DNA of 64,000 nt from Acidobacteriota bacterium (GTDB lineage: Bacteria > Acidobacteriota > Terriglobia > Acidiferrales > UBA7541): contig QHYN01000203.1 of NCBI GenBank assembly GCA_003224145.1, positions 11,201 through 75,200 on the forward strand. The letters are read 5' to 3'. Made by a program: the position numbers and the translations under genes. The notes beneath the pieces are model-generated. The model did no database searches, had not been told where the DNA came from, and saw nothing but the letters and a program-made list of their open reading frames with translations. Below, piece after piece: positions 11,117-60,962 of the stretch (the stretch's first letter is position 1; each line of letters begins with the position of its first letter).

Positions 11117-11728
11117 TCAATACGCAGAGGACGCTCCATTGCGGCCGTAGCCTCCAAAGGACCAGCGCACGCCAAAGGTGGCATAGAGACCGTAAGGACC
11201 GTTGGTGTGAAGGTCTGCCGTGCCCAGAGACTTGCTGTAGCGACCGAGCCAATCCACCTGATGTTGTGTCGCGCGCAGCTCGAAATTTTTCGGTAATTGA
11301 AACCCGATTCCAATGCAGCGGTCGTACGCAATCGGCTCCATTGAAGCGGCGTAAGTTGTTTGCGGGATATTTCGCCCGAAGCTGAATTTCGGCTCGAAGA
11401 AAAGGAAAAAGTGACGGAACGGCGTGCGACCCAGCGGCTGTACCTCCAGATATCCGCTGAAGAGATAGCGCGCGTAGGCCGTGCACATGGAAGCCGCCCC
11501 GCCCGCACTGGCTGGCTGGGGAAACATGCAGCGTCCAAGATCCGGCTCGTTGTGCGACGGCGCCACCGAGAAATCCGTATAGCCACGGACCCAGTTCGGT
11601 GGGAAAAATGTCCGTGGTTCTGCCGCCACGTGGGATACGCGGCCCGCTTTGGCGGCGGAGGTCTGTGCGTGCGCAGCAAAAGCCGAGACAGTCATGAAGG
11701 CCGTCAAAGCGATAAGGATTCTTTTCAT
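11117..11728 (-). CDS. Secreted hypothetical protein, possibly a small outer-membrane beta-barrel
   Basis: Signal peptide MKRILIALTAF...AHA|Q; alternating aromatic beta-strands, last one ATFGVRWSF. ATG at 11728. Confidence 0.6.
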   Translation of the reverse strand: MKRILIALTAFMTVSAFAAHAQTSAAKAGRVSHVAAEPRTFFPPNWVRGYTDFSVAPSHNEPDLGRCMFPQPASAGGAASMCTAYARYLFSGYLEVQPLGRTPFRHFFLFFEPKFSFGRNIPQTTYAASMEPIAYDRCIGIGFQLPKNFELRATQHQVDWLGRYSKSLGTADLHTNGPYGLYATFGVRWSFGGYGRNGASSAY

Positions 11729-23461: not shown

Positions 23462-23950
23462 ATGAAGAAACAGAAGGGTTTCTCTCTTATCGAGCTCTTG
23501 ATCGTCGTGGCGATCATTTTGATCATCGCGGCCATCGCTATTCCGAACTTGCTCCGGTCCCGTATGGCCGCGAACGAGTCTTCGGCAGTGGGTACGGTCC
23601 GCACGCTGAACACGGCGGAAGTCACCTTCTCAACGACATATCCGGCAGTTGGTTTCGGCGCACTGACCGCTCTGGGCGGTGCTCCGGCCACCTGCACAAC
23701 GACCGCGAGTTCAACCGCTGCGTGCTTGGTTGACAATACCATCTCGCAGGCGCCGAATCAGAAGAGTGGATATACCTTCTCGATTGGGAACTTGCTTGGA
23801 GCGCCGACAGTGGTGCAGTATAGCTCGCTGGCGGTGCCGATTGTTGTTGGACAGAGCGGGCAGCGTGGGTTCTGCTCCGACCAATCCGGCGTCATCCGCT
23901 ATAATGCGGCTGGCACCGGTTGCGCGGTCACCACGGACCCGGCACTTTAA
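23462..23950 (+). CDS. pilA: Type IVa major pilin, copy 1
   Basis: MKKQKG|FSLIELLIVVAII prepilin leader with Glu5; four Cys; AAGGAG ribosome-binding site. Confidence 0.9.
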   Translation: MKKQKGFSLIELLIVVAIILIIAAIAIPNLLRSRMAANESSAVGTVRTLNTAEVTFSTTYPAVGFGALTALGGAPATCTTTASSTAACLVDNTISQAPNQKSGYTFSIGNLLGAPTVVQYSSLAVPIVVGQSGQRGFCSDQSGVIRYNAAGTGCAVTTDPAL

Positions 23951-23991
23951 GGCGTCATCCCTGCGGCTGGTTGTTGGCCGCGCTTGAAAAC

Positions 23992-24023
23992 GAAAAGCAC
24001 GGGATGCGAATCCCGTGCTTTTC
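23992..24023. terminator. Intrinsic (probably bidirectional) terminator after pilin 1
   Basis: Perfect 14-bp stem GAAAAGCACGGGAT / ATCCCGTGCTTTTC with a GCGA loop. Confidence 0.85.
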
Positions 24024-24125
24024 AGTTATAAGGTACTGCACGCAATCTTGGGAGCCTCCGTAGTTGCTGACGAGTTTTGCAGCTGAATGCTTTGCCCCGA
24101 AGTGACCATTTATGCTTTACAAGGC

Positions 24126-24140
24126 TGACAAAAACTGTCA
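24126..24140 (+). promoter_or_regulatory. Putative PilR site for pilin 2
   Basis: Palindromic TGACA-AAAAC-TGTCA about 128 nt upstream of the -24 GG; a weaker GACC-N5-TGCT at 24104-24116. Confidence 0.55.
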
Positions 24141-24264
24141 AACTAAGGCGTATTTGCTTGTGACGGGGAGCAAGGACTCAGCTACTAGTTAATAATTCAG
24201 CGAATAATCTCTTTGTATTGAGTAGGATACAGGATGGTAGAGATGTCACGCCGGAATTCTCACT

Positions 24265-24281
24265 TTGGTCCCTGCTTTGCT
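24265..24281 (+). promoter_or_regulatory. Sigma54 -24/-12 promoter of pilin 2
   Basis: TTGGTCCCTGCTTTGCT: GG at 24267-24268, 10 nt, GC at 24279-24280. Confidence 0.7.
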
Positions 24282-24336
24282 TCCACCACAGTGTGCCTTT
24301 GCAGGTAAAAATTCTCTCAAGGAGTCAGGAGACAGC

Positions 24337-24876
24337 ATGAAGAAACAGAAGGGTTTCTCTCTTATCGAGCTCTTGATCGTCGTGGCGATCATTCTGATCA
24401 TCGCGGCCATCGCTATTCCGAACTTGCTCCGGTCCCGCATGGCCGCGAACGAGTCTTCGGCAGTGGGTACGGTCCGCACGCTGAACACGGCGGAAGTCAC
24501 CTTCTCAACGACATATCCGGCAGTTGGTTTCGGCGCACTGACCGCTCTGGGCGGTGCTCCGGCCACCTGCACAACGACCGCGAGTTCAACCGCCGCGTGC
24601 TTGGTTGACGATACCATCGCGCAGGCGCCGAATCAGAAGAGTGGATATACCTTCTCGATTGGGAACTTGCTTGGAGCGCCGACAGTGGTGCAGTATAGCT
24701 CGCTGGCGGTGCCGATTGTTGTTGGACAGAGCGGGCAGCGTGGGTTCTGCTCCGACCAATCCGGCGTCATCCGCTATAATGCGGCTGGCACCGGTTGCGC
24801 GGTCACCACGGACCCGGCACCTGTAGTTTCGCTCTTCCCTTGGCAATTGAACGGTGACCTAAAATGTCCCCAATAG
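24337..24876 (+). CDS. pilA: Type IVa pilin, copy 2 (near-identical to copy 1, frameshift-extended C-terminus)
   Basis: Five substitutions relative to copy 1 (two nonsynonymous: N/D, S/A). An extra C at ~24820 puts CTG TAG (24821-24826) out of frame. ATG at 24337. Confidence 0.88.
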   Translation: MKKQKGFSLIELLIVVAIILIIAAIAIPNLLRSRMAANESSAVGTVRTLNTAEVTFSTTYPAVGFGALTALGGAPATCTTTASSTAACLVDDTIAQAPNQKSGYTFSIGNLLGAPTVVQYSSLAVPIVVGQSGQRGFCSDQSGVIRYNAAGTGCAVTTDPAPVVSLFPWQLNGDLKCPQ

Positions 24877-24898
24877 GGGTTCAGGGACTATTTCTGTC
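24856..24898 (+). promoter_or_regulatory. Putative PilR sites for pilin 3
   Basis: GACC-N5-TGTC (24856-24868) and GACT-N5-TGTC (24886-24898). Confidence 0.5.
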
Positions 24899-24989
24899 AA
24901 TATGGGTCAGAACACCCATCAACCAGGCCACCATCTTCCTGTAAGTCTATGAATTTAAGCATTTTATCGGCATGTTAGTGCCCGGCGAG

Positions 24990-25006
24990 TTGGCCCGCAA
25001 AATGCT
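24990..25006 (+). promoter_or_regulatory. Sigma54 -24/-12 promoter of pilin 3
   Basis: TTGGCCCGCAAAATGCT: GG at 24992-24993, 10 nt, GC at 25004-25005. Confidence 0.7.
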
Positions 25007-25043
25007 CCATCATTCTGGTGAATTGAGCGCCTGGAGACGACCT

Positions 25044-25520
25044 ATGGGGAGAAAACAAACAGGCTTTTCTCTGATCGAGCTGCTGATCGTGGTGGCGATT
25101 ATCATGATCATCGCCGCGATAGCGTTGCCCAGTCTCTTGAGTGCTCGCATCTCCGCCAACGAGGCTTCCGCAGTGCAGAGCCTTCGCACCATCCAGACAT
25201 CGGAAACGGAATACGCCACGACTTATCCCAACCTTGGCTACTCCGCCACGCTTGCGGATCTCGGCGGGGCGAGTAGTAGTGCATGCGTCCCTTCGCCGAC
25301 ACTGGCCTGCCTGATCGACAACCTTCTGGCCAGCGGTACGAAAAGTGGGTACAACATCACGTGGGCTGGCGACGGCCTTACGCCCTCTGTCAGCTACAAC
25401 CTTAACGCCGACCCCATTGTTCGTGGTACCAGCGGCCGACGGAGTTTTTACACGAATTATCCGGGCGTGATCCGTTACAACGATACGGGTCCGGCAACGG
25501 TAAATGACCCTGCCATCTAG
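25044..25520 (+). CDS. Type IVa pilin, divergent paralogue 3
   Basis: MGRKQTG|FSLIELLIVVAII leader; only two Cys (the C-terminal pair is absent). ATG at 25044. Confidence 0.88.
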   Translation: MGRKQTGFSLIELLIVVAIIMIIAAIALPSLLSARISANEASAVQSLRTIQTSETEYATTYPNLGYSATLADLGGASSSACVPSPTLACLIDNLLASGTKSGYNITWAGDGLTPSVSYNLNADPIVRGTSGRRSFYTNYPGVIRYNDTGPATVNDPAI

Positions 25521-37911: not shown

Positions 37912-39176
37912 ATGCTCCGACCCGTACTGCCGCTGCAACTTTTATCGTCCCTGGTCTTAGTTCTGTGCTCCCCTGTGATTGGCCAGAACCAAACCTCACT
38001 CGGCGAGGCAGCGCGTCAAACGAAGGCTGCTAAATCCGCCGCGCCGGATAAAGCTGCGAAAGTTATCACAAACGAAACTCAGGACGGGCAAGGCGCCTGC
38101 ACACTGCCAGCCCAATCGACGAAGGACCCTACGGCGGAGGACGCGCTGCGCATGGCATTTCTCCATCGGATTGCTGGGCGGTGGAATTTAGCCTATTCCG
38201 GCAAGGGTAACCATCACTGGTGGCCGAATCACGGCTCGGTAGGGCCCAAGGACCAAATTCATTACTTGTTTGGACCCACAGAGTTGTCAATAGAATCTAG
38301 CCCGAATTCAATCCGACTTCCGTCACTGGTCGCTTTGTCTATGGCTCGGTGCGCAAGATCTCGGCGGACGTGTTCGATGTGGCTCTGTACAAGCCTTGCG
38401 AGCCCGCCACCCAAGAAATCAAGCGGTTCAAACTCTTAATCAACGGGAAGATGCTAGAAATCACGGCAGACGCTGAAGGAAATCCAGAACCTACCATCCA
38501 GGTTCTGGAACTTGTCGAACCAAGCTTCGCCCTTCCGCAGGAACCGAAGCCGAAAGTGCAGTCCGGCGAGATCAAGGAAGGCAAGCAGTACACGAGTAGC
38601 AAGGGAATGTTCTCCATTACTGTACCTCCGCGCAATTGGGCTGTAGACACGTACAAATTTGAAGAGTCACAGTTGAAGTATGAAAACTATGACTACGAGG
38701 AAGTGGTCTTTTACATCCCTGACTTTGGACAAGCCTACGGGGTAGGGGTTCGCCGGATTCCGCAGGCGGCCCTGATACAGATGGCAAAAGAGGAAGAGAA
38801 GCAAACACTCTCGAGCCTTGCGAATAAAGCCCTTCACCAATGGCGGGACTATGCCGCAGAACCCCAGCCGGTGGAAGAAACCTCCCTCCAGACGCAGTTC
38901 GGAGCAAGTTTGCTCCGTATCTACCTTGCTAAGCGTTCCTCGCTGGGTGAAACCGCGGTCGGTGGAGACAGGATCGGCAATCTCAAAGGCGAGAAGCTTG
39001 ATACTCACATTGCTGTGATTGTGGCGAAGAAGGGGGATTTGTTCATCTATGCGACAGTGGAAGACGACGATCTGCAGTCCAACTCCACACGACCGCCACA
39101 GGGTCCTTTCGACCCCAAACCAATCTTGAGCAAGAAGTTGCAGAGCTTCTTTGCCAGCATGACCGTAAAAATCTGA
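37912..39176 (+). pseudogene. Secreted hypothetical protein split by a single-base frameshift near 38301
   Basis: Frame 1 has a signal peptide and runs to ...ELSIESS. The second frame is open from 38301 (PEFNPTSVTGRFVYGSVRKISAD...) to the stop at 39176. One extra C in AGCCCG would fuse them. Confidence 0.6.
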
Positions 39177-39277: not shown

Positions 39278-40804
39278 TCACGGTGTTGCCGGAACAGGAC
39301 GAACACTGCGGAGCTGGTTGACAATATCGATCGCCAGCCGCTGCGCCGCGGCGGGACCGTCAATTGCGGTGACCTTCCCTGTTCCCAGGACCATGCCTGT
39401 TTTCGGGCTAATCATTTTGAAAATCCAGTCGTACGTCAGGAAGGGCCGCGTGACGTCGATATAGATATCGGCTCCGTTGCGGTCGTCGACGATACGGATG
39501 CCCCACTCCTTCATCTCGGGCCGAATGTAAAGCGCGTCTTGCAACAAATTGCCCTTCATCCAGATCGTGTGGGATTCCACAAATATCGATCGAGCAGAGC
39601 GAAGAATTCCTGCCGGATCGTTTCCTGATTCACGAATCGCCGTGTTGTTCGCCTCCGATGTTCCGGTAGGTCTGTCCAGTTCTTCGCGCGGGAACTGCAC
39701 GGCACTCGCGAGCTGCTCCACAATGACTTCCGCCAGCTTCGGACCGGCGTCGAATTCATCGGTTGCTTCAACCATGCCTGAAGCGAGTGTCAAGGACTTG
39801 GGCTGATAAACCAGGGTGTAGGTCCAGTCAAACGTCATGACCGGCCGGTCAACGGTGATGGCAATATCGGCAGTCTGCCCGTAATCGGCGAAGCGCAATC
39901 CCAAGTGCGGGAACATCGCTGTTTTATGAATATCGTCCTGCAGCCGCTCGCGGCGCAAATAAATCGTTTTGGAATGCACCGAAATGGTGTACATTTGCCG
40001 CTGGTCCGGGCGAGGTAGAGTCAGACCAGGAGGAGCCACTGGTGCTGCAGGAGGGTTGGAAGGAGCCGCTGCAGCGGACGCGGCTTTGGCGCTGAATGGC
40101 TGCAGACGCGCGCCCGAGTCAAAGCGCGCGCCGCCAGATGCATTGCCGAGACCGGCAATGCTGTCGAAGGGCACGGCAAAATTCAGGTTCTGGCCGACGC
40201 TGAGTGAACCGACGACGATTCCTAGTATCCTAGCTTCGGCATCCACCAGCACGCCGCCGCTGGATCCGGGCGACAATGGAGCGGTGAACTGCAAAACCCG
40301 GTAGCCACTACCAGCCCCGGGTACATCGTCGGCCATTCGGGTGGCGCTCAGGATGCCGGAAGATGCAGTCCAGGGCAAGCCCACAGCGTTCGATACGACA
40401 AAAACCGTGGCACCGGATGCCGCGCTAGCGGAGTTGCCGATGGGCAGCACTGGAAGCCCCGTTGCAGGGATGCGCAGTGCTGCAACGTCGCGGCGCTCAT
40501 CGGACGCGATCAGCTCGACTTGGTCGTAGATTTCGCCGCTTTTGACCCGCACTTGCACCTCGCGCATCCCTTTCACGACATGGTTCGCAGTGAGGATCAC
40601 GCCATCGCTCCGGACAATCACGCCGGAAGCTACGCCCGCCACTTGGCCGTCACCTTTGCCGACCAGAATGGATACAGCTGCAGGCGAAACTCGATCGACG
40701 ACTTGATCTCCGGACAGTGCTTGGGGAGTTCCGCCTTGCCCCATCAAGTTCGATGTGGACATCCCGCACAGAACCGCGATAGCTAACAAGTTGACTAGTC
40801 GCAT
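39278..40804 (-). CDS. Secreted trypsin-like (S1) serine protease with two repeated C-terminal domains, no PDZ
   Basis: Catalytic triad motifs LTANHV, RDVAAL and PGSSGG; signal peptide; internal duplication in the C-terminal ~230 aa. Confidence 0.85.
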   Translation of the reverse strand: MRLVNLLAIAVLCGMSTSNLMGQGGTPQALSGDQVVDRVSPAAVSILVGKGDGQVAGVASGVIVRSDGVILTANHVVKGMREVQVRVKSGEIYDQVELIASDERRDVAALRIPATGLPVLPIGNSASAASGATVFVVSNAVGLPWTASSGILSATRMADDVPGAGSGYRVLQFTAPLSPGSSGGVLVDAEARILGIVVGSLSVGQNLNFAVPFDSIAGLGNASGGARFDSGARLQPFSAKAASAAAAPSNPPAAPVAPPGLTLPRPDQRQMYTISVHSKTIYLRRERLQDDIHKTAMFPHLGLRFADYGQTADIAITVDRPVMTFDWTYTLVYQPKSLTLASGMVEATDEFDAGPKLAEVIVEQLASAVQFPREELDRPTGTSEANNTAIRESGNDPAGILRSARSIFVESHTIWMKGNLLQDALYIRPEMKEWGIRIVDDRNGADIYIDVTRPFLTYDWIFKMISPKTGMVLGTGKVTAIDGPAAAQRLAIDIVNQLRSVRPVPATP

Positions 40805-47801: not shown

Positions 47802-48815
47802 CTATGGTTTTTTCGTTTGCCTTGCTACCTCGTTGTCTCGGTTTGCCTGCACTTCCTTAGAGTTTAAGAGTTTGATCAATTCTTCGCCTGGGACGATGGT
47901 AGCGATTCCACTGTTATCGCGAACTTCGCCGGTTAGAACTGTAGCTGCGGGAACACTAAAGCCTGCAGACTCGGGGTAGTATCCGCTAATGAGCCCTAAA
48001 AGAATGTATCTATCGCCAGCAAAAAACGACCCGTGGTGCATCCCTCCAAGATTGACGAAGACAGGAGACCCACTGTTACCGTGAAATGCATGGAGGTCTG
48101 CTAGGAACAGTTTCCCTTTTTTGTGTAGTGTGGTGTCCAGCTTCTCTTCAGGCAACATTGCAATGACCCCTTCTCTGACAATTGGTTCCATACGGGTCTG
48201 TCCTGAAAAACTGCTGAAGTATCCGGCAAAGACGAGCTGATCCCCGACTGCAACGTCGCCGTTTTTGAGTTGGTCAGAACTTGCAACGATACTGAATGGG
48301 ATGTGCCGATAGGCATATCTCTTGCTGTCCGGTGCGAGGGGGAGAATGGCGAGGTCCACGGCATCGTCTGATGCGAAGAACCATTGTATCTGGCCGCCTA
48401 GCGGGATTTGTTCGGCTATGGATTGGAGTCCATGCTCCGGAGTGGCCAGATTCATTCGTAAATATACAGCTAGAACATGGTAAGGCGAGCCAACGTCAAT
48501 ACCTGGTTGCGCGACGTGCCGGTTTGTCACGAGGTATATGAAGGCCCGATCTGCCCCGAGCCTGGCGTCGGGGAACATTACAAAGAAACAGGTTCCGATG
48601 ACACCGCCTTGTGTCAGTCCATTCTGATAGGTAACCATCAAGAAGCCAACCGTGCTTCGAATTTGTTCTGGAAGGGGTGGCATAGGTGCTGCTGTGCTGG
48701 TCGCCGACTGCTGAGGTGCCGCGGTGGGTGGGGGCTGTGTTGGCTGTTGGGCTGAAGAAGTGAGCAATGCTAGCAATAAGCAAGAAACCAGAGCTGGAAT
48801 GCTGAAATCTCGCAT
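47802..48815 (-). CDS. Secreted trypsin-like serine protease (no PDZ)
   Basis: Signal peptide ...TSSA|QQP; triad motifs VTNRHV, DLAIL and HGNSGSPV. Confidence 0.78.
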   Translation of the reverse strand: MRDFSIPALVSCLLLALLTSSAQQPTQPPPTAAPQQSATSTAAPMPPLPEQIRSTVGFLMVTYQNGLTQGGVIGTCFFVMFPDARLGADRAFIYLVTNRHVAQPGIDVGSPYHVLAVYLRMNLATPEHGLQSIAEQIPLGGQIQWFFASDDAVDLAILPLAPDSKRYAYRHIPFSIVASSDQLKNGDVAVGDQLVFAGYFSSFSGQTRMEPIVREGVIAMLPEEKLDTTLHKKGKLFLADLHAFHGNSGSPVFVNLGGMHHGSFFAGDRYILLGLISGYYPESAGFSVPAATVLTGEVRDNSGIATIVPGEELIKLLNSKEVQANRDNEVARQTKKP

Positions 48816-50310: not shown

Positions 50311-50386
50311 TGGTGGACGAGAGGGGATTCGAACCCCCGACCTCCTCGTTGCGAACGAGGCGCTCTCCCAGCTGAGCTACTCGCCC
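50311..50386 (-). tRNA. tRNA-Ala (anticodon CGC)
   Basis: GGGCGAGTAGCTCAGCTGGGAGAGCGCCTCGTT-CGC-AACGAGGAGGTCGGGGGTTCGAATCCCCTCTCGTCCACCA; 76 nt, encoded CCA. Confidence 0.97.
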
Positions 50387-50522: not shown

Positions 50523-52136
50523 TTACGGTTGATCGACCGACTCGCCCATGCGTTGCGCGATGATCTTCCGCGCGTTTTGGTACAGCGCACGCGCCTGTGG
50601 AATCACCTCCACGGCCTTCTGCACCTGCGGGTCGGCTTCCAGCAGAACCTTGAAGCCCTCCTGCTGGCTGAACGCGGACATAAATACTTCCTGCTTAATC
50701 TTCCGCTTCATCCAGTCCAGGTTCTCCGCCATCTCCGGTTCCGTGTACCTGACGTTGTGCTTGCTCAAGTACTCGCGAAACATTCGCATCACGTTCTCAT
50801 CCGCCTCAAATTCTTTGGTAATGGTTGGCTTCATCCCCAGGTAATAGCGCGTAAACCCTCCCACACCCGTCTCCGCGGGGAAGAATACATCGTCGCGAAA
50901 TAGCAATTGCTGAAACTTGGTCAGCTTCGGCGCCGCTACGATGATATCCGGAATAATTCCTCCTCCGCCGGTAACCTGCCGCCCGCTGTCCGTCAGTTTC
51001 ACTTCCGTGGGATGATCAGGCACTTTGCGTTCGTAGTGATATTCGTAAAGCGAAACCGACTTGTAATCCCTCTGAATCAGCCGGCCACTTGGCGTGTAAT
51101 AACGCGCCGTAGTCAGCGCAAGCCCGGTATTCTCGCTGAGGGGAGTTACCGTCTGAACCAGGCCTTTGCCGAAAGTCGTCTCGCCCACGATCAGGCCGCG
51201 ATCGTGATCCTGCACTGCACCGGAAACAATCTCCGTGGCCGAGGCAGAATTGTTGTTCACCAGGATCACCAGGGGCACGGTCACGCCCTGATTGCCGCGC
51301 ACGGCGTAATACCGCCGTTCCGGCGACGTCCTTCCGTGGTGCGACACGATCAACTGGTTCTTGTCCAGGAACATATCGCCGACAGCCACCGCCTCATTCA
51401 GCAATCCGCCTGGGTTGCCCCGCATATCCAGAATTAGCCCGTCCAGCGAGGAGGCGCCCAACTGTTTCAACGCATCCGCAATTTCGCGATCCGTTGTTTC
51501 GTTAAACCCCGACAGCCGGATGTACCCAATCCCCGGCTTCAGCAGGAATGCGATGTCCACGGAATGCCGCGGAATCTCATCCCGGGTCACCGTGAACACC
51601 AGGGTTTCTGGATATCCTTCGCGCGAAACGGTGATCTTGACCACCGTTCCCTTCGGTCCCTTCAACATATCGGCGACTTCGGTGGTGGAGAGGCCTTCGG
51701 TTGATCTGTCATCGACCTTGACGATCACATCGCCCGGCCGGATTCCTGCCTTATACGCGGGCGCGCCGGCGTACGGCGCCATCACCACGGTATGGTTCTC
51801 CCGCGGTGCCACAATCATTCCCACGCCGTAATACTTCCCGCGCTGGTCCTCCCGCAAAAGCGAAAATTGCTTGGCATCAAAGAAACTGGAGTGCGGATCG
51901 AGCATCCGCAGCATGCCCGGGATGGCTCCCTGGTAGACGGCCTTGTCCACATCCATTGGCTCGGCGTAGTTGTTCTGAACCACGTCCAGCACGCGTGTAA
52001 AATCCCGCACGGCGGTCTGATAATCATCCGCCGAAGCGGCAGTAGCCCGCACATTGGGGCCGTAAATACCTCCCAAAATAGCGGATAACAGCAATACCCC
52101 AATAGCGATAACAATTCCGCGACGTTCTGATTTCAT
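50523..52136 (-). CDS. ctpA: S41-family carboxy-terminal processing protease
   Basis: PDZ domain; LDMRGNPGG, SASATEI and TFGKGLVQ motifs; N-terminal signal or anchor. ATG 52136. Confidence 0.9.
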   Translation of the reverse strand: MKSERRGIVIAIGVLLLSAILGGIYGPNVRATAASADDYQTAVRDFTRVLDVVQNNYAEPMDVDKAVYQGAIPGMLRMLDPHSSFFDAKQFSLLREDQRGKYYGVGMIVAPRENHTVVMAPYAGAPAYKAGIRPGDVIVKVDDRSTEGLSTTEVADMLKGPKGTVVKITVSREGYPETLVFTVTRDEIPRHSVDIAFLLKPGIGYIRLSGFNETTDREIADALKQLGASSLDGLILDMRGNPGGLLNEAVAVGDMFLDKNQLIVSHHGRTSPERRYYAVRGNQGVTVPLVILVNNNSASATEIVSGAVQDHDRGLIVGETTFGKGLVQTVTPLSENTGLALTTARYYTPSGRLIQRDYKSVSLYEYHYERKVPDHPTEVKLTDSGRQVTGGGGIIPDIIVAAPKLTKFQQLLFRDDVFFPAETGVGGFTRYYLGMKPTITKEFEADENVMRMFREYLSKHNVRYTEPEMAENLDWMKRKIKQEVFMSAFSQQEGFKVLLEADPQVQKAVEVIPQARALYQNARKIIAQRMGESVDQP

Positions 52137-52164
52137 TCTGACCTCGCGCGAGAACCTAGCAAAA

Positions 52165-52219
52165 ATTATACCACATCGCAAACTCCGGTTTGACAGCGCC
52201 TAAACACCCTTTCTATGAT
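52165..52219. promoter_or_regulatory. Divergent promoters for ctpA and the tat operon
   Basis: Minus strand TG-G-TATAAT (52173-52165); plus strand TTGACA (52190-52195)-18 nt-TATGAT (52214-52219). Confidence 0.6.
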
Positions 52220-52251: not shown

Positions 52252-52674
52252 ATGTTGAGCATTCCCCACATGATTGTTGTCTTTATCGTGGTCTTGGTCG
52301 TTTTCGGACCTCAGAAGCTGCCGGAGCTTGCCCGCGGCCTGGGCAAACTCATGGCTGAGTTTCGCAAAGCTTCTACGGACTTTAAGACTGCCTTCGAAGA
52401 GGAGATGCGCGACCTGGAGCGCCAGGCGCTTCTGGCCGAGCGCAAGAAGGCCGCAGATGCGGCCGCCGGCGAGCCAATACAACCTGCGACCATCGCTACC
52501 GCCTCAGGCGCCGAAACGCCTTCGAGCGAAGGCCCAGCAGAACCTCGCGGCACCGAAGCCCCGGTGATTTCCCCGGTGGCTGAATCGGTCGCGCGTTCTG
52601 GCGAAGAATCGGCCGATATTAAGGCGGAAGCCGCCGCGCCAACCGAATCTGAAGAATCCAGACATGACGCATAG
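52252..52674 (+). CDS. tatB: Twin-arginine translocase TatB (TatA/B family)
   Basis: TM helix, FGPQKLPELARGLGK, amphipathic helix and a long low-complexity tail; upstream of tatC. Confidence 0.78.
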   Translation: MLSIPHMIVVFIVVLVVFGPQKLPELARGLGKLMAEFRKASTDFKTAFEEEMRDLERQALLAERKKAADAAAGEPIQPATIATASGAETPSSEGPAEPRGTEAPVISPVAESVARSGEESADIKAEAAAPTESEESRHDA

Positions 52675-53515
52675 CGTCCCGCCTGATCTTGTGCCCGACT
52701 CCACTCACAAACCGCAGAACGCCAGCCCGGCTGAAGAGCCCGGCGGCGCCATGACCTTTTTCGAGCACTTGAGCGAGCTGCGCAAGCGCATCATCTATTC
52801 GCTTTATGCTATCGGCATCGGCGCCTTCATTGGCATTTACCTTTCCAAGTATTTGATCTACTGGATTAACAAGCCGATGCTGAAGGCGCTCGCGGACGCA
52901 CACCTTGATCCGAAACTGATTTATACGCATCCGGCGGGCTATTTGAATCTCGTTATCACAGTGGGCGTGTATCTCGGAATCGTGTTGGCTTCGCCCATCG
53001 TGCTCTATCAAATCTGGCTTTTTGTCGCACCGGCCCTCTACAAACATGAGCGCGGCGCCATTACCGGCTTCATGTGTTCCACCGTTTTTCTCTTTCTGGC
53101 AGGGATTGCCTTTGGGTACTTCATCACTCTCCCCTACGTCCTGCACTTCCTGATCAGCCCGGGGCCGTTATTCATGTTGCAGCGTGACGTCACGCCCATG
53201 ATTAGCGTAAACGAGTATTTCGATTTGATCTTGCTGATCCTTCTGGGTATCGGGTTGATGTTCGAGCTCCCCGTTCTGATTTTCTTTCTCTCCCTCTTTG
53301 GCATCGTTACGCCGAAGTTTCTCTGGAAAAATTCGAAATACGCCATTCTCGTCATCTCGGTGATCGCCGCGATCGTGACCCCCACTCCGGACGCTTTGAC
53401 CATGCTGGTCTTCATGGCTCCGATGATTGGGCTCTATTTCCTGGGCATCGCGGTCTCCGCAGTCGTCACGCGGCGGCGGGATCGGCGGCTGGCCGCTCCG
53501 GTGGAGGCACGCTGA
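52664..53515 (+). CDS. tatC: Twin-arginine translocase TatC
   Basis: MTFFEHLSELRKR, YQIWLFVAPALY, FELP and TPTPD motifs. Confidence 0.95.
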   Translation: MTHSVPPDLVPDSTHKPQNASPAEEPGGAMTFFEHLSELRKRIIYSLYAIGIGAFIGIYLSKYLIYWINKPMLKALADAHLDPKLIYTHPAGYLNLVITVGVYLGIVLASPIVLYQIWLFVAPALYKHERGAITGFMCSTVFLFLAGIAFGYFITLPYVLHFLISPGPLFMLQRDVTPMISVNEYFDLILLILLGIGLMFELPVLIFFLSLFGIVTPKFLWKNSKYAILVISVIAAIVTPTPDALTMLVFMAPMIGLYFLGIAVSAVVTRRRDRRLAAPVEAR

Positions 53516-54547
53516 ATGGGATTGCACTCGAGAGCTGTTCTGCGCACCGCTTTGCTCTTTAGCTTCATCCCCGCAGGGTTGCTAGGCTGTAAAGCAGGCG
53601 GGAACGATCCCTCCGGCGCCACCGGCCAGCCACCCTTCATGAGCACCGTGGCTTCCGCGCCGCCGCAAACTGCTGACGACGCACCGCCACCCGAGAAGAC
53701 CGACGGCTTCGATGGCAAGCGGGCTTTCGCATTAGTCGCCAAGCAAGTCAGCTTCGGCCCGCGTCCTTCCGGCTCACAAGCCATCGTGCAACTGCAGGAT
53801 TTTCTGCAATCAGAGTTGAAGAGTTATGGCTGCGCCATGGAGACCGACAGTTTTAGCGCTGACACGCCAATTGGCCGTCTCCCGATGAAAAACATTCTCG
53901 TGAAGATTCCCGGCGAGAAACCCGGCGTGATCCTGCTCGGCACTCATTACGACACGAAGCGCCTAGAGAGGTTCGTCGGTGCGGATGATGCTGGCTCCTC
54001 CACTGCGGTGATGCTGGAGCTCGCCCGTCTCCTTTGCAAGCAGCGGGGCAAGTACGCGGTTTGGATCGCTTTCTTCGACGGCGAAGAAGCCGTCAATCGT
54101 GACTGGAAGGATCCTGACAATCGCTACGGCAGCCGTCAGATGGCCGCAAAACTTTCCGCCAGCAGCGACCTCCCGAGAATCAAAGCTCTCCTTCTTGCCG
54201 ATATCGTCGGTGGCCGCAATCTGCACGTCAAGAAGGAGAGTTACTCCACTAAATGGTTGACGGAGTTGGTATGGGCTGTCGCCGACCGGCTGGGTTATCA
54301 AAGTGTGTTTCTGAACGAGGAGAGCACCATCGAAGACGACCACTTATCTTTTTTGAGCCGCAAGGTTCCTTCCATGGATGTGATCGATTTGGACAACGGA
54401 CCGGAAGGCGATGTCTACTACTGGCACACTCCGCAGGACACACTCGACAAGATCAGTGCCAAGAATCTTGCCATCATCGGCCACGTTTTTCTAGAGTCGG
54501 TGAAACAACTTCAATCCAGATACTTAGGCCTCGATCGACAGATGTGA
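53516..54547 (+). CDS. M28-family lipoprotein, glutaminyl-peptide cyclotransferase-like
   Basis: Lipobox LLG-C; HYDTK, GADD, FFDGEE, LADIVG, IEDDHLSFL and YWHT motifs. Confidence 0.75.
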   Translation: MGLHSRAVLRTALLFSFIPAGLLGCKAGGNDPSGATGQPPFMSTVASAPPQTADDAPPPEKTDGFDGKRAFALVAKQVSFGPRPSGSQAIVQLQDFLQSELKSYGCAMETDSFSADTPIGRLPMKNILVKIPGEKPGVILLGTHYDTKRLERFVGADDAGSSTAVMLELARLLCKQRGKYAVWIAFFDGEEAVNRDWKDPDNRYGSRQMAAKLSASSDLPRIKALLLADIVGGRNLHVKKESYSTKWLTELVWAVADRLGYQSVFLNEESTIEDDHLSFLSRKVPSMDVIDLDNGPEGDVYYWHTPQDTLDKISAKNLAIIGHVFLESVKQLQSRYLGLDRQM

Positions 54548-60320: not shown

Positions 60321-60962
60321 TTATTGCGCCCATCCGGGATCGCCCCCGGATTTCCTCAATTCCGATTCCATGTCATCCAATTCCTGCCGGAGCTGGTCCA
60401 GTTCCTTTTTCTTGTCGGCGATCTTTGCGCGCTTTTCATTGACCTCCGTGCGATTGTTCTGTTCATTCATGGCCTTCTGTGGATCCGCGTAATACTGCAC
60501 CTGTGTTTTCTCTAACTCGCGTTGCAGGACATTCAGCTCCTTTTCCGCACGGACAATCTTTGCGTGCTGCTCGCTGAATCGCTTCCGCCATGCTTTCTCG
60601 CTGTTGGGATCCTCCAGCGGCGTTGATTCGTCTTTCTTCGCCGTGCTTTCGGCCTTTTGGGTGTCTGTCGCCGTCCTGCCAGTAGCGCCCTGGCCCTCGT
60701 TCGTTGCTCCAGCAGCAGCACCGGCACCCGTTTCCGCCGGCTTCTCTTGACCCGCAGTTCCAGAGTGCTTCACGTCATCGTCTGTAAAAACCTTCTTCGG
60801 TTTTTGGGCGTTCTTCTTTTCTTCACGCGCTTTTCTTGCGGCGTCCGCTACCGGGTCGCCTGCCTGCTGCGAAGAGCTCTGTTGCTGCGCGTAGCTCGGC
60901 ACGCCTGCCAGGCACAGTCCCGCCACAATCACCGCCGCCTTCATCCATTCTCTCATTCGCAT
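60321..60962 (-). CDS. Secreted coiled-coil hypothetical protein
   Basis: Signal peptide ...PSYA|QQQ; DPVADAARKAR...KKVFTDDD motif; long heptad-rich C-terminus. Confidence 0.7.
   Translation of the reverse strand: MRMREWMKAAVIVAGLCLAGVPSYAQQQSSSQQAGDPVADAARKAREEKKNAQKPKKVFTDDDVKHSGTAGQEKPAETGAGAAAGATNEGQGATGRTATDTQKAESTAKKDESTPLEDPNSEKAWRKRFSEQHAKIVRAEKELNVLQRELEKTQVQYYADPQKAMNEQNNRTEVNEKRAKIADKKKELDQLRQELDDMESELRKSGGDPGWAQ

Follow-up and report, generated by a model that had tools for sequence, protein, structure and literature searches.

The window analysed here, a stretch of 64,000 nucleotides (nt) from an Acidobacteriota bacterium of the class Terriglobia (assembly GCA_003224145.1, contig QHYN01000203.1, positions 11,201 to 75,200), encodes right behind tatA and tatC, two genes for twin-arginine translocation (Tat), a lipoprotein that is a type II (animal-type, M28-fold) glutaminyl cyclase (QC). 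Together with a genome-wide preference for glutamine (Gln) at position +1 of the predicted substrates of signal peptidase I (SPase I), this gene leads us to a reading that we hold to be probable: the membrane-tethered cyclase caps the Gln(+1) of a large share of the Sec/SPase I substrates, apparently across the Terriglobia. In the Bacteroidetes, where QC is essential and pursued as a drug target in periodontal pathogens, the corresponding Q-rule, that is, the dominance of Gln(+1) among such substrates, has come to be viewed as a hallmark of the phylum. The mean Gln(+1) value for these bacteria is 71% (Bochtler et al. 2018, PMC5837995), with more than 48% published for 332 of 334 Bacteroidetes species, and a later article places the rule "exclusively in the Bacteroidetes phylum" (Szczesniak et al. 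2023 mBio, PMC10653852).

Identification of the cyclase

The open reading frame (ORF) at 53516-54547(+), of 343 amino acids (aa), shows a single Pfam domain, Peptidase_M28 (PF04389, E 1e-32), and carries in full the lipobox and the series of motifs from which a previous sequence-only reading of the window had recognized a QC-like lipoprotein: LLGC (residues 22-25), HYDTK (144), GADD (155), FFDGEE (186), LADIVG (227), IEDDH (272) and WHT (303). The resemblance to animal-type QCs claimed on that basis was borne out by structural comparisons. A search of PDB chains with the protein gave as top match 7D18, the QC of an Acidobacteriales bacterium (E 1e-60, residues 55-334), followed by about 40 entries that are all QCs, among which those from Bacteroidota (3tc8, 6qro, 7cje, 6qql and 4fuu, at E 1e-28 to 1e-22) rank before the Drosophila QCs, human isoQC and human QC (E ~1e-15 for the latter). 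An AlphaFold model obtained with 25 orthologs as input (predicted template modelling score of 0.76) has a confident catalytic domain preceded by disordered residues 1-52 (predicted local distance difference test, pLDDT, <50), and a Foldseek comparison of this model with the PDB returned glutaminyl cyclases for 50 of the 50 top matches, with 7D18 again as the best one (E 2.5e-23).

A residue-by-residue view of the predicted active site was obtained by motif alignment to PdQC, TfQC and 7D18, with residue roles drawn from PMC11312887 and PMC7948796. The equivalents of the Zn1 ligands are D158 (GADD), E191 (GEE) and H304 (WHT), which in human QC correspond to Asp159, Glu202 and His330 (PMC11312887). 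The catalytic Glu would be E190, and D229 (LADIVG) and the first Asp of DDH (D274) would make up the acid network, matching E201-D305-D248 of the human enzyme. All these residues are invariant across 81 orthologs, as are H144, D146, D275, H276, W303 and the lipobox Cys25; Trp303 is the QC-typical Trp (equivalent to PgTrp298), at a position where aminopeptidases have Tyr. The carboxylic-acid hydrogen-bond network is reportedly the feature that Huang and colleagues put forward in J Mol Biol in 2021 as a discriminator of M28 cyclases from peptidases, a study from which we take the structure 7D18, released in 2021, to come.

The label of the protein in Pfam and at NCBI, which is M28 peptidase only, would also fit a two-zinc M28 aminopeptidase trimming exported or Tat-dependent proteins, and residues for a second zinc, His144 and Asp229, are present, as they are in human QC too. 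Such a role is nevertheless barely credible, as the close solved relatives are all QCs and the first true aminopeptidase comes up only at E 5e-10, behind the ~40 QC entries, and the protein retains a Trp-His pair of the QC type together with the EE pair and the Asp of DDH. Moreover, the same-class relative 7D18 was itself deposited as a glutaminyl cyclase. Phylogeny also separates both types of enzymes. In a maximum-likelihood tree, the window QC, six orthologs and 7D18 form a clade (support 97/91) that joins the QCs of Parabacteroides and Tannerella (3tc8 and 6qro) with a support of 98/99, leaving outside 12 M28 paralogs of the genome to which the window belongs (G000, hereafter the own genome). 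Matches to M28 (PF04389) occur in 17 places of this genome (e.g., C51:10137-10706, C158:1659-2222, C96, C140, C42 and C327), and two paralogs that were checked against the PDB have di-zinc aminopeptidases as best relatives (YwaD, SGAP and Aeromonas AP). With none of the 12 paralogs in the tree placed inside the QC clade, the own genome is left with exactly one gene of that clade. Its paralogs of the aminopeptidase type number at least 12, a large load in keeping with a need to cap N-termini.

Altogether, the identification of the window protein as a type II QC is secure, for an enzyme family that was already known, and from the sequence we infer cyclase activity for this ortholog. Annotation of the orthologs is divided between glutaminyl-peptide cyclotransferase, often used by JGI/IMG, and M28 family peptidase at NCBI, and a scan of the QC against NCBIfam gave no QC-specific model, with one weak LapA match far under the cut-off. 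At the N-terminus, Lys26 is nearly invariant across the 81 orthologs. The invariant Cys25 and the absence of a twin-arginine motif indicate that the QC is itself a Sec lipoprotein, predicted to be processed by signal peptidase II.

Glutamine at position +1 of the exported proteins

Eight signal peptides had been singled out in the window by the sequence-only reading, and all of them are found in the sequence: five that would expose Gln (Table 1) and three that would not, namely VRA|T of the S41 peptidase (also in Table 1), LRA|E and YSA|I. Five out of eight is already well above a baseline of ~8% (p = 1.5e-4).

The genome-wide frequency of Gln(+1) was estimated with a home-made pipeline, in which genes were called with a self-trained codon model and signal-peptide-like N-termini were defined with no use of the cleavage motif, after discarding lipoproteins as well as proteins with additional transmembrane segments or long hydrophobic anchors. 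Many "non-Gln" calls are mis-sitings that have an evident xxA|Q a few residues downstream, and it was such errors under a first heuristic blind to +1 that led us to this purified set and to several ways of choosing the site: (a) expectation-maximization (EM) limited to positions -5 to -1, which makes no use of +1; (b) EM extended to positions +1 to +3; and (c) the final AxA-type site ahead of the first charge, which is, if anything, biased against Gln. All triplets of values below refer to rules (a) / (b) / (c). For the own genome (3,855 called genes with 479, 479 and 244 sites, respectively), Gln(+1) reached 23% / 37% / 28%, the commonest residue under the three rules, followed by Ala with 5-14%, in a proteome with 3.7% of Gln. 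Because of the xxA|Q sites hidden downstream, these raw values are underestimates. A motif test of the c-region that needs no site prediction, also prompted by the mis-sitings, showed Gln after an AxA-type motif in 19% versus 6% (odds ratio, OR, 3.4, p 6e-37), as the sole enriched residue, and the same test in non-secreted proteins gave 3.5% versus 3.5%. Three tandem genes of the window at 23462-25520(+) share near-identical prepilin-type N-termini (MKKQKGFSLIELLIVVAIILIIAAIA...), and are type IV pilin/pseudopilin paralogs that the heuristic miscalled as SPase I substrates.

The same code was applied to several other genomes. The positive control from the Bacteroidota, a 700-kb sample of Prevotella sp. 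oral taxon 299, yielded 26% / 43% / 37%, from which the own genome does not differ significantly under any of the three rules. The source record of this control (PLSDB NC_022111.1) is a 1.77-Mb replicon filed as an unannotated "plasmid", with a QC homolog at 1411850-1412716. On the low side, 250 kb of E. coli K-12 gave 11% / 5% / 0% and the QC-less acidobacterium G044 gave 0% / 0% / 0%, while another one, G041, had too few sites. Other members of the Terriglobia behave like the own genome: an assembly of the same genus, G005 (22% / 27% / 50%), one of another family with a tatC-linked QC, G159 (27% / 27% / 26%), and the megaplasmid pACIX901 of Granulicella tundricola (22% / 28% / 30%). Once pooled, these other Terriglobia reach 24-35% versus 6-8% for the non-Terriglobia (p ~1e-4 to 3e-4), and the own genome alone, with its 23-37%, differs from the same non-Terriglobia with p values from 2.5e-4 to 3e-12, so that the enrichment of Gln(+1) that the window had suggested was supported at the genome level by our home-made pipeline. 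A comparison of G000 with G005 and G159 for conservation of the +1 Gln in orthologous signal peptides yielded 8 pairs only, too small a number to draw on. Plant-type (beta-propeller) QC was discarded as a confounder, with PF05096 absent in G000, G005, G044, G041, G046, G124, G171 and G027.

One could argue that the enrichment is an artefact of heuristic gene calling, of the choice of sites or of composition, as a crude predictor takes in some cytoplasmic proteins, an EM informed by +1 may become self-reinforcing and the comparators span 250-700 kb. We find this highly improbable. Both rules blind to +1 (23% and 28%) still rank Gln first, the motif test is strongly positive with no prediction and null in non-secreted proteins, and mis-sitings bias the values downward. 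Moreover, E. coli and G044 come out at 0-11% where Prevotella, run through the identical pipeline, reaches 26-43%. The effect is not explained by composition either, since the QC-bearing acidobacterium G171 equals the own genome in GC content (57%) and has a proteome richer in Gln (4.4%), yet shows no clear enrichment.

Linkage of the cyclase gene to tatA and tatC

The QC gene had been described in the sequence-only reading as fused into the tat operon. Its ATG at 53516 does directly follow the TGA stop of tatC (53513-53515), with a GGAGG 7 nt upstream of the ATG, although the two genes sit side by side, in apparent translational coupling, and are not fused. The three genes are predicted to be co-transcribed; a sigma-70-like promoter lies before tatA, and no convincing terminator was found from tatA to the end of the QC gene. 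This arrangement is strongly conserved, with tatC directly upstream on the same strand and preceded by tatA in 79 of 80 related loci. In 65 of the 69 loci that could be evaluated, a QC start codon and the tatC stop are no more than 4 nt apart: they abut in 49 loci, overlap by 4 nt in 11 and overlap by 1 nt in 5. By whole-genome coordinates, QC and tatC are adjacent in 12 of 12 Terriglobia genomes outside the own genus, including those of a second family group of the same class, and in 0 of 18 QC-bearing Acidobacteriota genomes of other classes. Overall, 54 of 151 Acidobacteriota genomes of high quality carry a QC homolog.

Among the 25 assemblies of the same genus, four (G002, G004, G005 and G013, one of them rated 96% complete) lack the QC gene. 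As tatC is also missing in all four, the whole locus seems to be unassembled and they are not true QC negatives. We had regarded G005 as a natural QC-less negative control, which was dropped for the same reason; its exported proteins still prefer Gln. Such dropout of a locus in metagenome-assembled genomes calls for caution when inferring the absence of a gene.

A direct explanation for the linkage would be that Tat substrates are the clients of the QC. This idea was rejected, as the proteins with a consensus S/T-RR-x-F-L mostly carry A, D, E, K or Y as their +1 residue (in the own genome, C23:11210, C33:4522, C141:15734, C167:5987 and C256:1721 are examples), and the Gln preference seems restricted to Sec substrates. 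The linkage may reflect the mere co-regulation of genes for envelope biogenesis, and the neighbouring gene would fit this notion: it encodes an S41 C-terminal processing peptidase, which nearly all related loci share in a divergent upstream position. The Tat genes are in this way flanked by a C-terminal processing protease and a putative N-terminal capping enzyme. A bolder proposal is that the Terriglobia run a proteome-wide Gln(+1)/pyroglutamate capping of the Bacteroidota type in which the cyclase is made in stoichiometric amounts with the Tat translocase and may act at the translocon or close to it, which we see as a tentative and rather doubtful idea.

The coordinates of all these features, as well as those of the exported proteins of the window, are given in Table 1. 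On the other side of the QC gene, a convergent nadB-like ORF ends 15 nt past the QC stop. A tRNA-Ala (CGC) gene at 50311-50386(-) lies just downstream of the S41 gene, where long spurious ORFs cross on both strands. The GC content of the window is 55-61%, and its nearest relatives assign it to the uncultured 'Candidatus Acidoferrum'/Acidoferrales group within the Terriglobia.

Table 1. Features of the window around the cyclase gene and exported proteins with a predicted Gln(+1)
Feature	Coordinates	Strand	Evidence and remarks
Exported protein, ...AFAAHA|QTSAAK	11120..11728	-	Site ambiguous: alternative AFA|A equally legal
Exported protein, ...CSPVIG|QNQTS	37912..38439	+	Predicted signal peptide
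Trypsin_2 (HtrA-like) peptidase, ...TSNLMG|QGGTP	39278..40804	-	Predicted signal peptide and domain
Trypsin_2-like peptidase, ...LLTSSA|QQPTQ	47802..48815	-	Predicted signal peptide and domain
S41 C-terminal processing peptidase with PDZ domain (ctp)	50523..52181	-	Pfam Peptidase_S41, E 3.7e-51, and PDZ
Sigma-70-like promoter, TTGACA-18-TATGAT, before tatA	52190..52219	+	11/12 consensus positions; consensus match only
tatA, 140 aa, TatA_B_E family	52252..52674	+	Pfam PF02416, E 1.7e-17; 11-nt overlap with tatC start
tatC, 283 aa	52664..53515	+	Pfam PF00902, E 2.4e-64
Type II QC lipoprotein, 343 aa	53516..54547	+	PDB search, Foldseek, tree, invariant residues
Sec-type lipoprotein signal peptide, lipobox L-L-G-C (Cys25)	53516..53590	+	N-terminus MGLHSRAVLRTALLFSFIPAGLLGC; no twin-arginine motif
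Pro/Ala/Gly-rich tether, ~residues 26-61 (~35 residues)	53591..53698	+	Low pLDDT; fold begins at ~62; PDB alignments begin at 55-62
QC catalytic domain (Zn ligands D158, E191, H304; E190; D229, D274; H144, W303)	53699..54520	+	Motif alignment
Exported protein, ...GVPSYA|QQQSS	60321..60962	-	Predicted signal peptide

A putative capping pathway and its alternatives

The pathway that we propose would start with the export of the QC itself by Sec and its lipidation at Cys25, which would leave the enzyme flexibly tethered at the periplasmic face of the membrane. Substrates would likewise be exported by Sec and then cleaved by SPase I, exposing Gln at +1, which the zinc-dependent cyclase would convert to pyroglutamate and so leave the new N-terminus capped. 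On the model of the Bacteroidota, such a cap would protect exported proteins from aminopeptidases. Both the pyroglutamate on the substrates and its protective role are extrapolated from that phylum, whose mechanism offers the most economical account of the data. A pathway of this kind had been proposed in the sequence-only reading and, in our judgement, the phylogeny and the Gln(+1) tests support it, with pyroglutamate formation itself following by analogy.

A more modest role can be envisaged for a genuine QC, with few dedicated substrates, an excess of Gln(+1) derived from a P1' preference of SPase I or Sec or from Gln-rich N-termini, and a cyclisation that is spontaneous or incidental. Enzyme and preference are indeed separable traits, as the acidobacteria G124 and G171 have a QC with little or no enrichment of Gln(+1); Gln is also raised ~2.5-fold at positions +2 to +6; and QCs are widespread in bacteria, occurring in most of those without a Q-rule, whereas the rule itself is not (PMC10653852). 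On the other hand, Gln at +1 is 3-4 times as frequent as at the neighbouring positions and the only residue enriched after AxA, the Gln trait and the operon-embedded QC coincide in one class, a tethered QC facing the periplasm would meet every exposed N-terminal Gln, and in Bacteroidota the same class of enzyme acts indiscriminately on Gln(+1) substrates (PMC10653852). A QC with dedicated substrates is thus an unlikely explanation, though less so than an artefact of prediction, and a broad capping of Gln(+1) remains our preferred reading.

There are several points that weigh against a broad capping. The source organism is uncultured and represented by a metagenome-assembled genome. In its QC, the position of the QC-typical Phe (PgPhe294/human Phe325) is non-aromatic, Asp or Val by simple register (GDVYYWH), within a loop modelled with moderate confidence; in aminopeptidases, a small residue occurs where QCs carry that Phe, four residues before the Trp. 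Mature N-termini are generally rich in Gln (~9% at +2 to +6 in the own genome), so the signal is partly compositional, and the heuristic predictor has an appreciable rate of false positives (e.g., carB-like N-termini in E. coli). Comparator samples are small (250-700 kb, with n = 6-69 each) and include one positive-control species. A calibration of the raw values, which is a crude two-point one (baseline ~7%, Prevotella ~71%), gives a Gln(+1) share of 51-62% for the own genome, the true share being probably 50-60%, or about half. Two QC-bearing acidobacteria of other classes show no clear enrichment (3% / 3% / 6% for G124 and 12% / 8% / 17% for G171), and the QC-less acidobacterium G046 gives 4% / 18% / 14%. 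Lastly, with no Gln(+1) on Tat substrates, the linkage to tat has no obvious mechanistic meaning.

In G046 (loci L161-L180), the motif test detects a weak signal of Gln after AxA (OR 2.6, p 0.03, n = 28), which may be noise or a Gln preference without a known QC. As for G124 and G171, carrying a QC without a Gln preference, they indicate that the presence of the enzyme alone does not predict the trait. The Terriglobia show both, but a QC is not sufficient for the preference.

Comparison with known cyclases and with the Q-rule

The closest known enzyme, 7D18, comes from the same bacterial class and shares with the window QC the fold and the GEE, DDH and (W/H)-H-T motifs. The two proteins are however just 37% identical over 284 aligned columns (Foldseek), and 7D18 has a His (YHHT) where the window QC and all 81 orthologs have Trp303 (YWHT). 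The PDB entry holds nothing on operon context, lipidation or substrates.

The system of the Bacteroidota (PgQC PG2157, TfQC, PdQC and BtQC) resembles that of the window in its type II QC lipoprotein facing the periplasm and in a Gln that dominates the +1 position of Sec/SPase I substrates, with raw values here about those of Prevotella. Apart from the phylum, differences are found in the third zinc ligand, which is Asp (AED) in the Bacteroidota enzymes, where it has been called "bacteroidal QC-specific" (Taudte et al. 2021, PMC7948796), and Glu (GEE) in the window QC as in animals; in the coupling to tatA and tatC, a feature of the window QC; and in the share of Gln, probably somewhat under the published mean. 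With the human and insect QCs (QPCT 2AFM, isoQC 3PB4 and Drosophila 4F9U), the window enzyme has in common the Zn1 triad (Asp, Glu and His), the catalytic Glu, the acid network and the series HYD(S/T)K, FFDGEE, DDH and WHT, with E values of 1e-15 to 1e-23. These animal QCs, on the contrary, are enzymes of the secretory pathway and Golgi that act on hormones and chemokines, with neither lipobox nor operon.

A possible Q-rule outside Bacteroidota was the main suggestion of the sequence-only reading. Its Gln signature holds in this genome, although isolated high values outside the Bacteroidetes were already on record, such as the 77% of Ignavibacterium album and the 40-67% of a few cyanobacteria (PMC5837995). 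That survey (Bochtler et al. 2018, PMC5837995) covers the FCB group, Spirochaetes, Chlamydiae and cyanobacteria and leaves Acidobacteria unmentioned. Full-text literature searches combining Q-rule or QC with Acidobacteria, Terriglobia or tat, a scope outside which the study behind 7D18 falls, gave nothing relevant. Both the Gln preference in Acidobacteriota and the coupling of a QC to tat appear to be undescribed. The SprA_N profile had no match in the own genome, nor in the controls, and was uninformative.

Implications

If true, N-terminal capping in the Terriglobia would contradict the published statement that restricts the Q-rule to the Bacteroidetes, and pyroglutamate capping would become a strategy more widespread among diderm bacteria exposed to proteases. 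Terriglobia are among the most abundant soil bacteria, and the trait would bear on the prediction, expression and sequencing of the N-termini of acidobacterial exoenzymes, as blocked N-termini defeat Edman sequencing and alter the design of recombinant proteins. Granulicella, Terriglobus and Acidobacterium would offer a culturable and non-pathogenic test bed. A maturation enzyme for Sec substrates encoded beside the genes of the Tat translocase raises the question of why both should be co-expressed. The conserved tatA-tatC-QC operon also provides a simple genomic marker of the trait.

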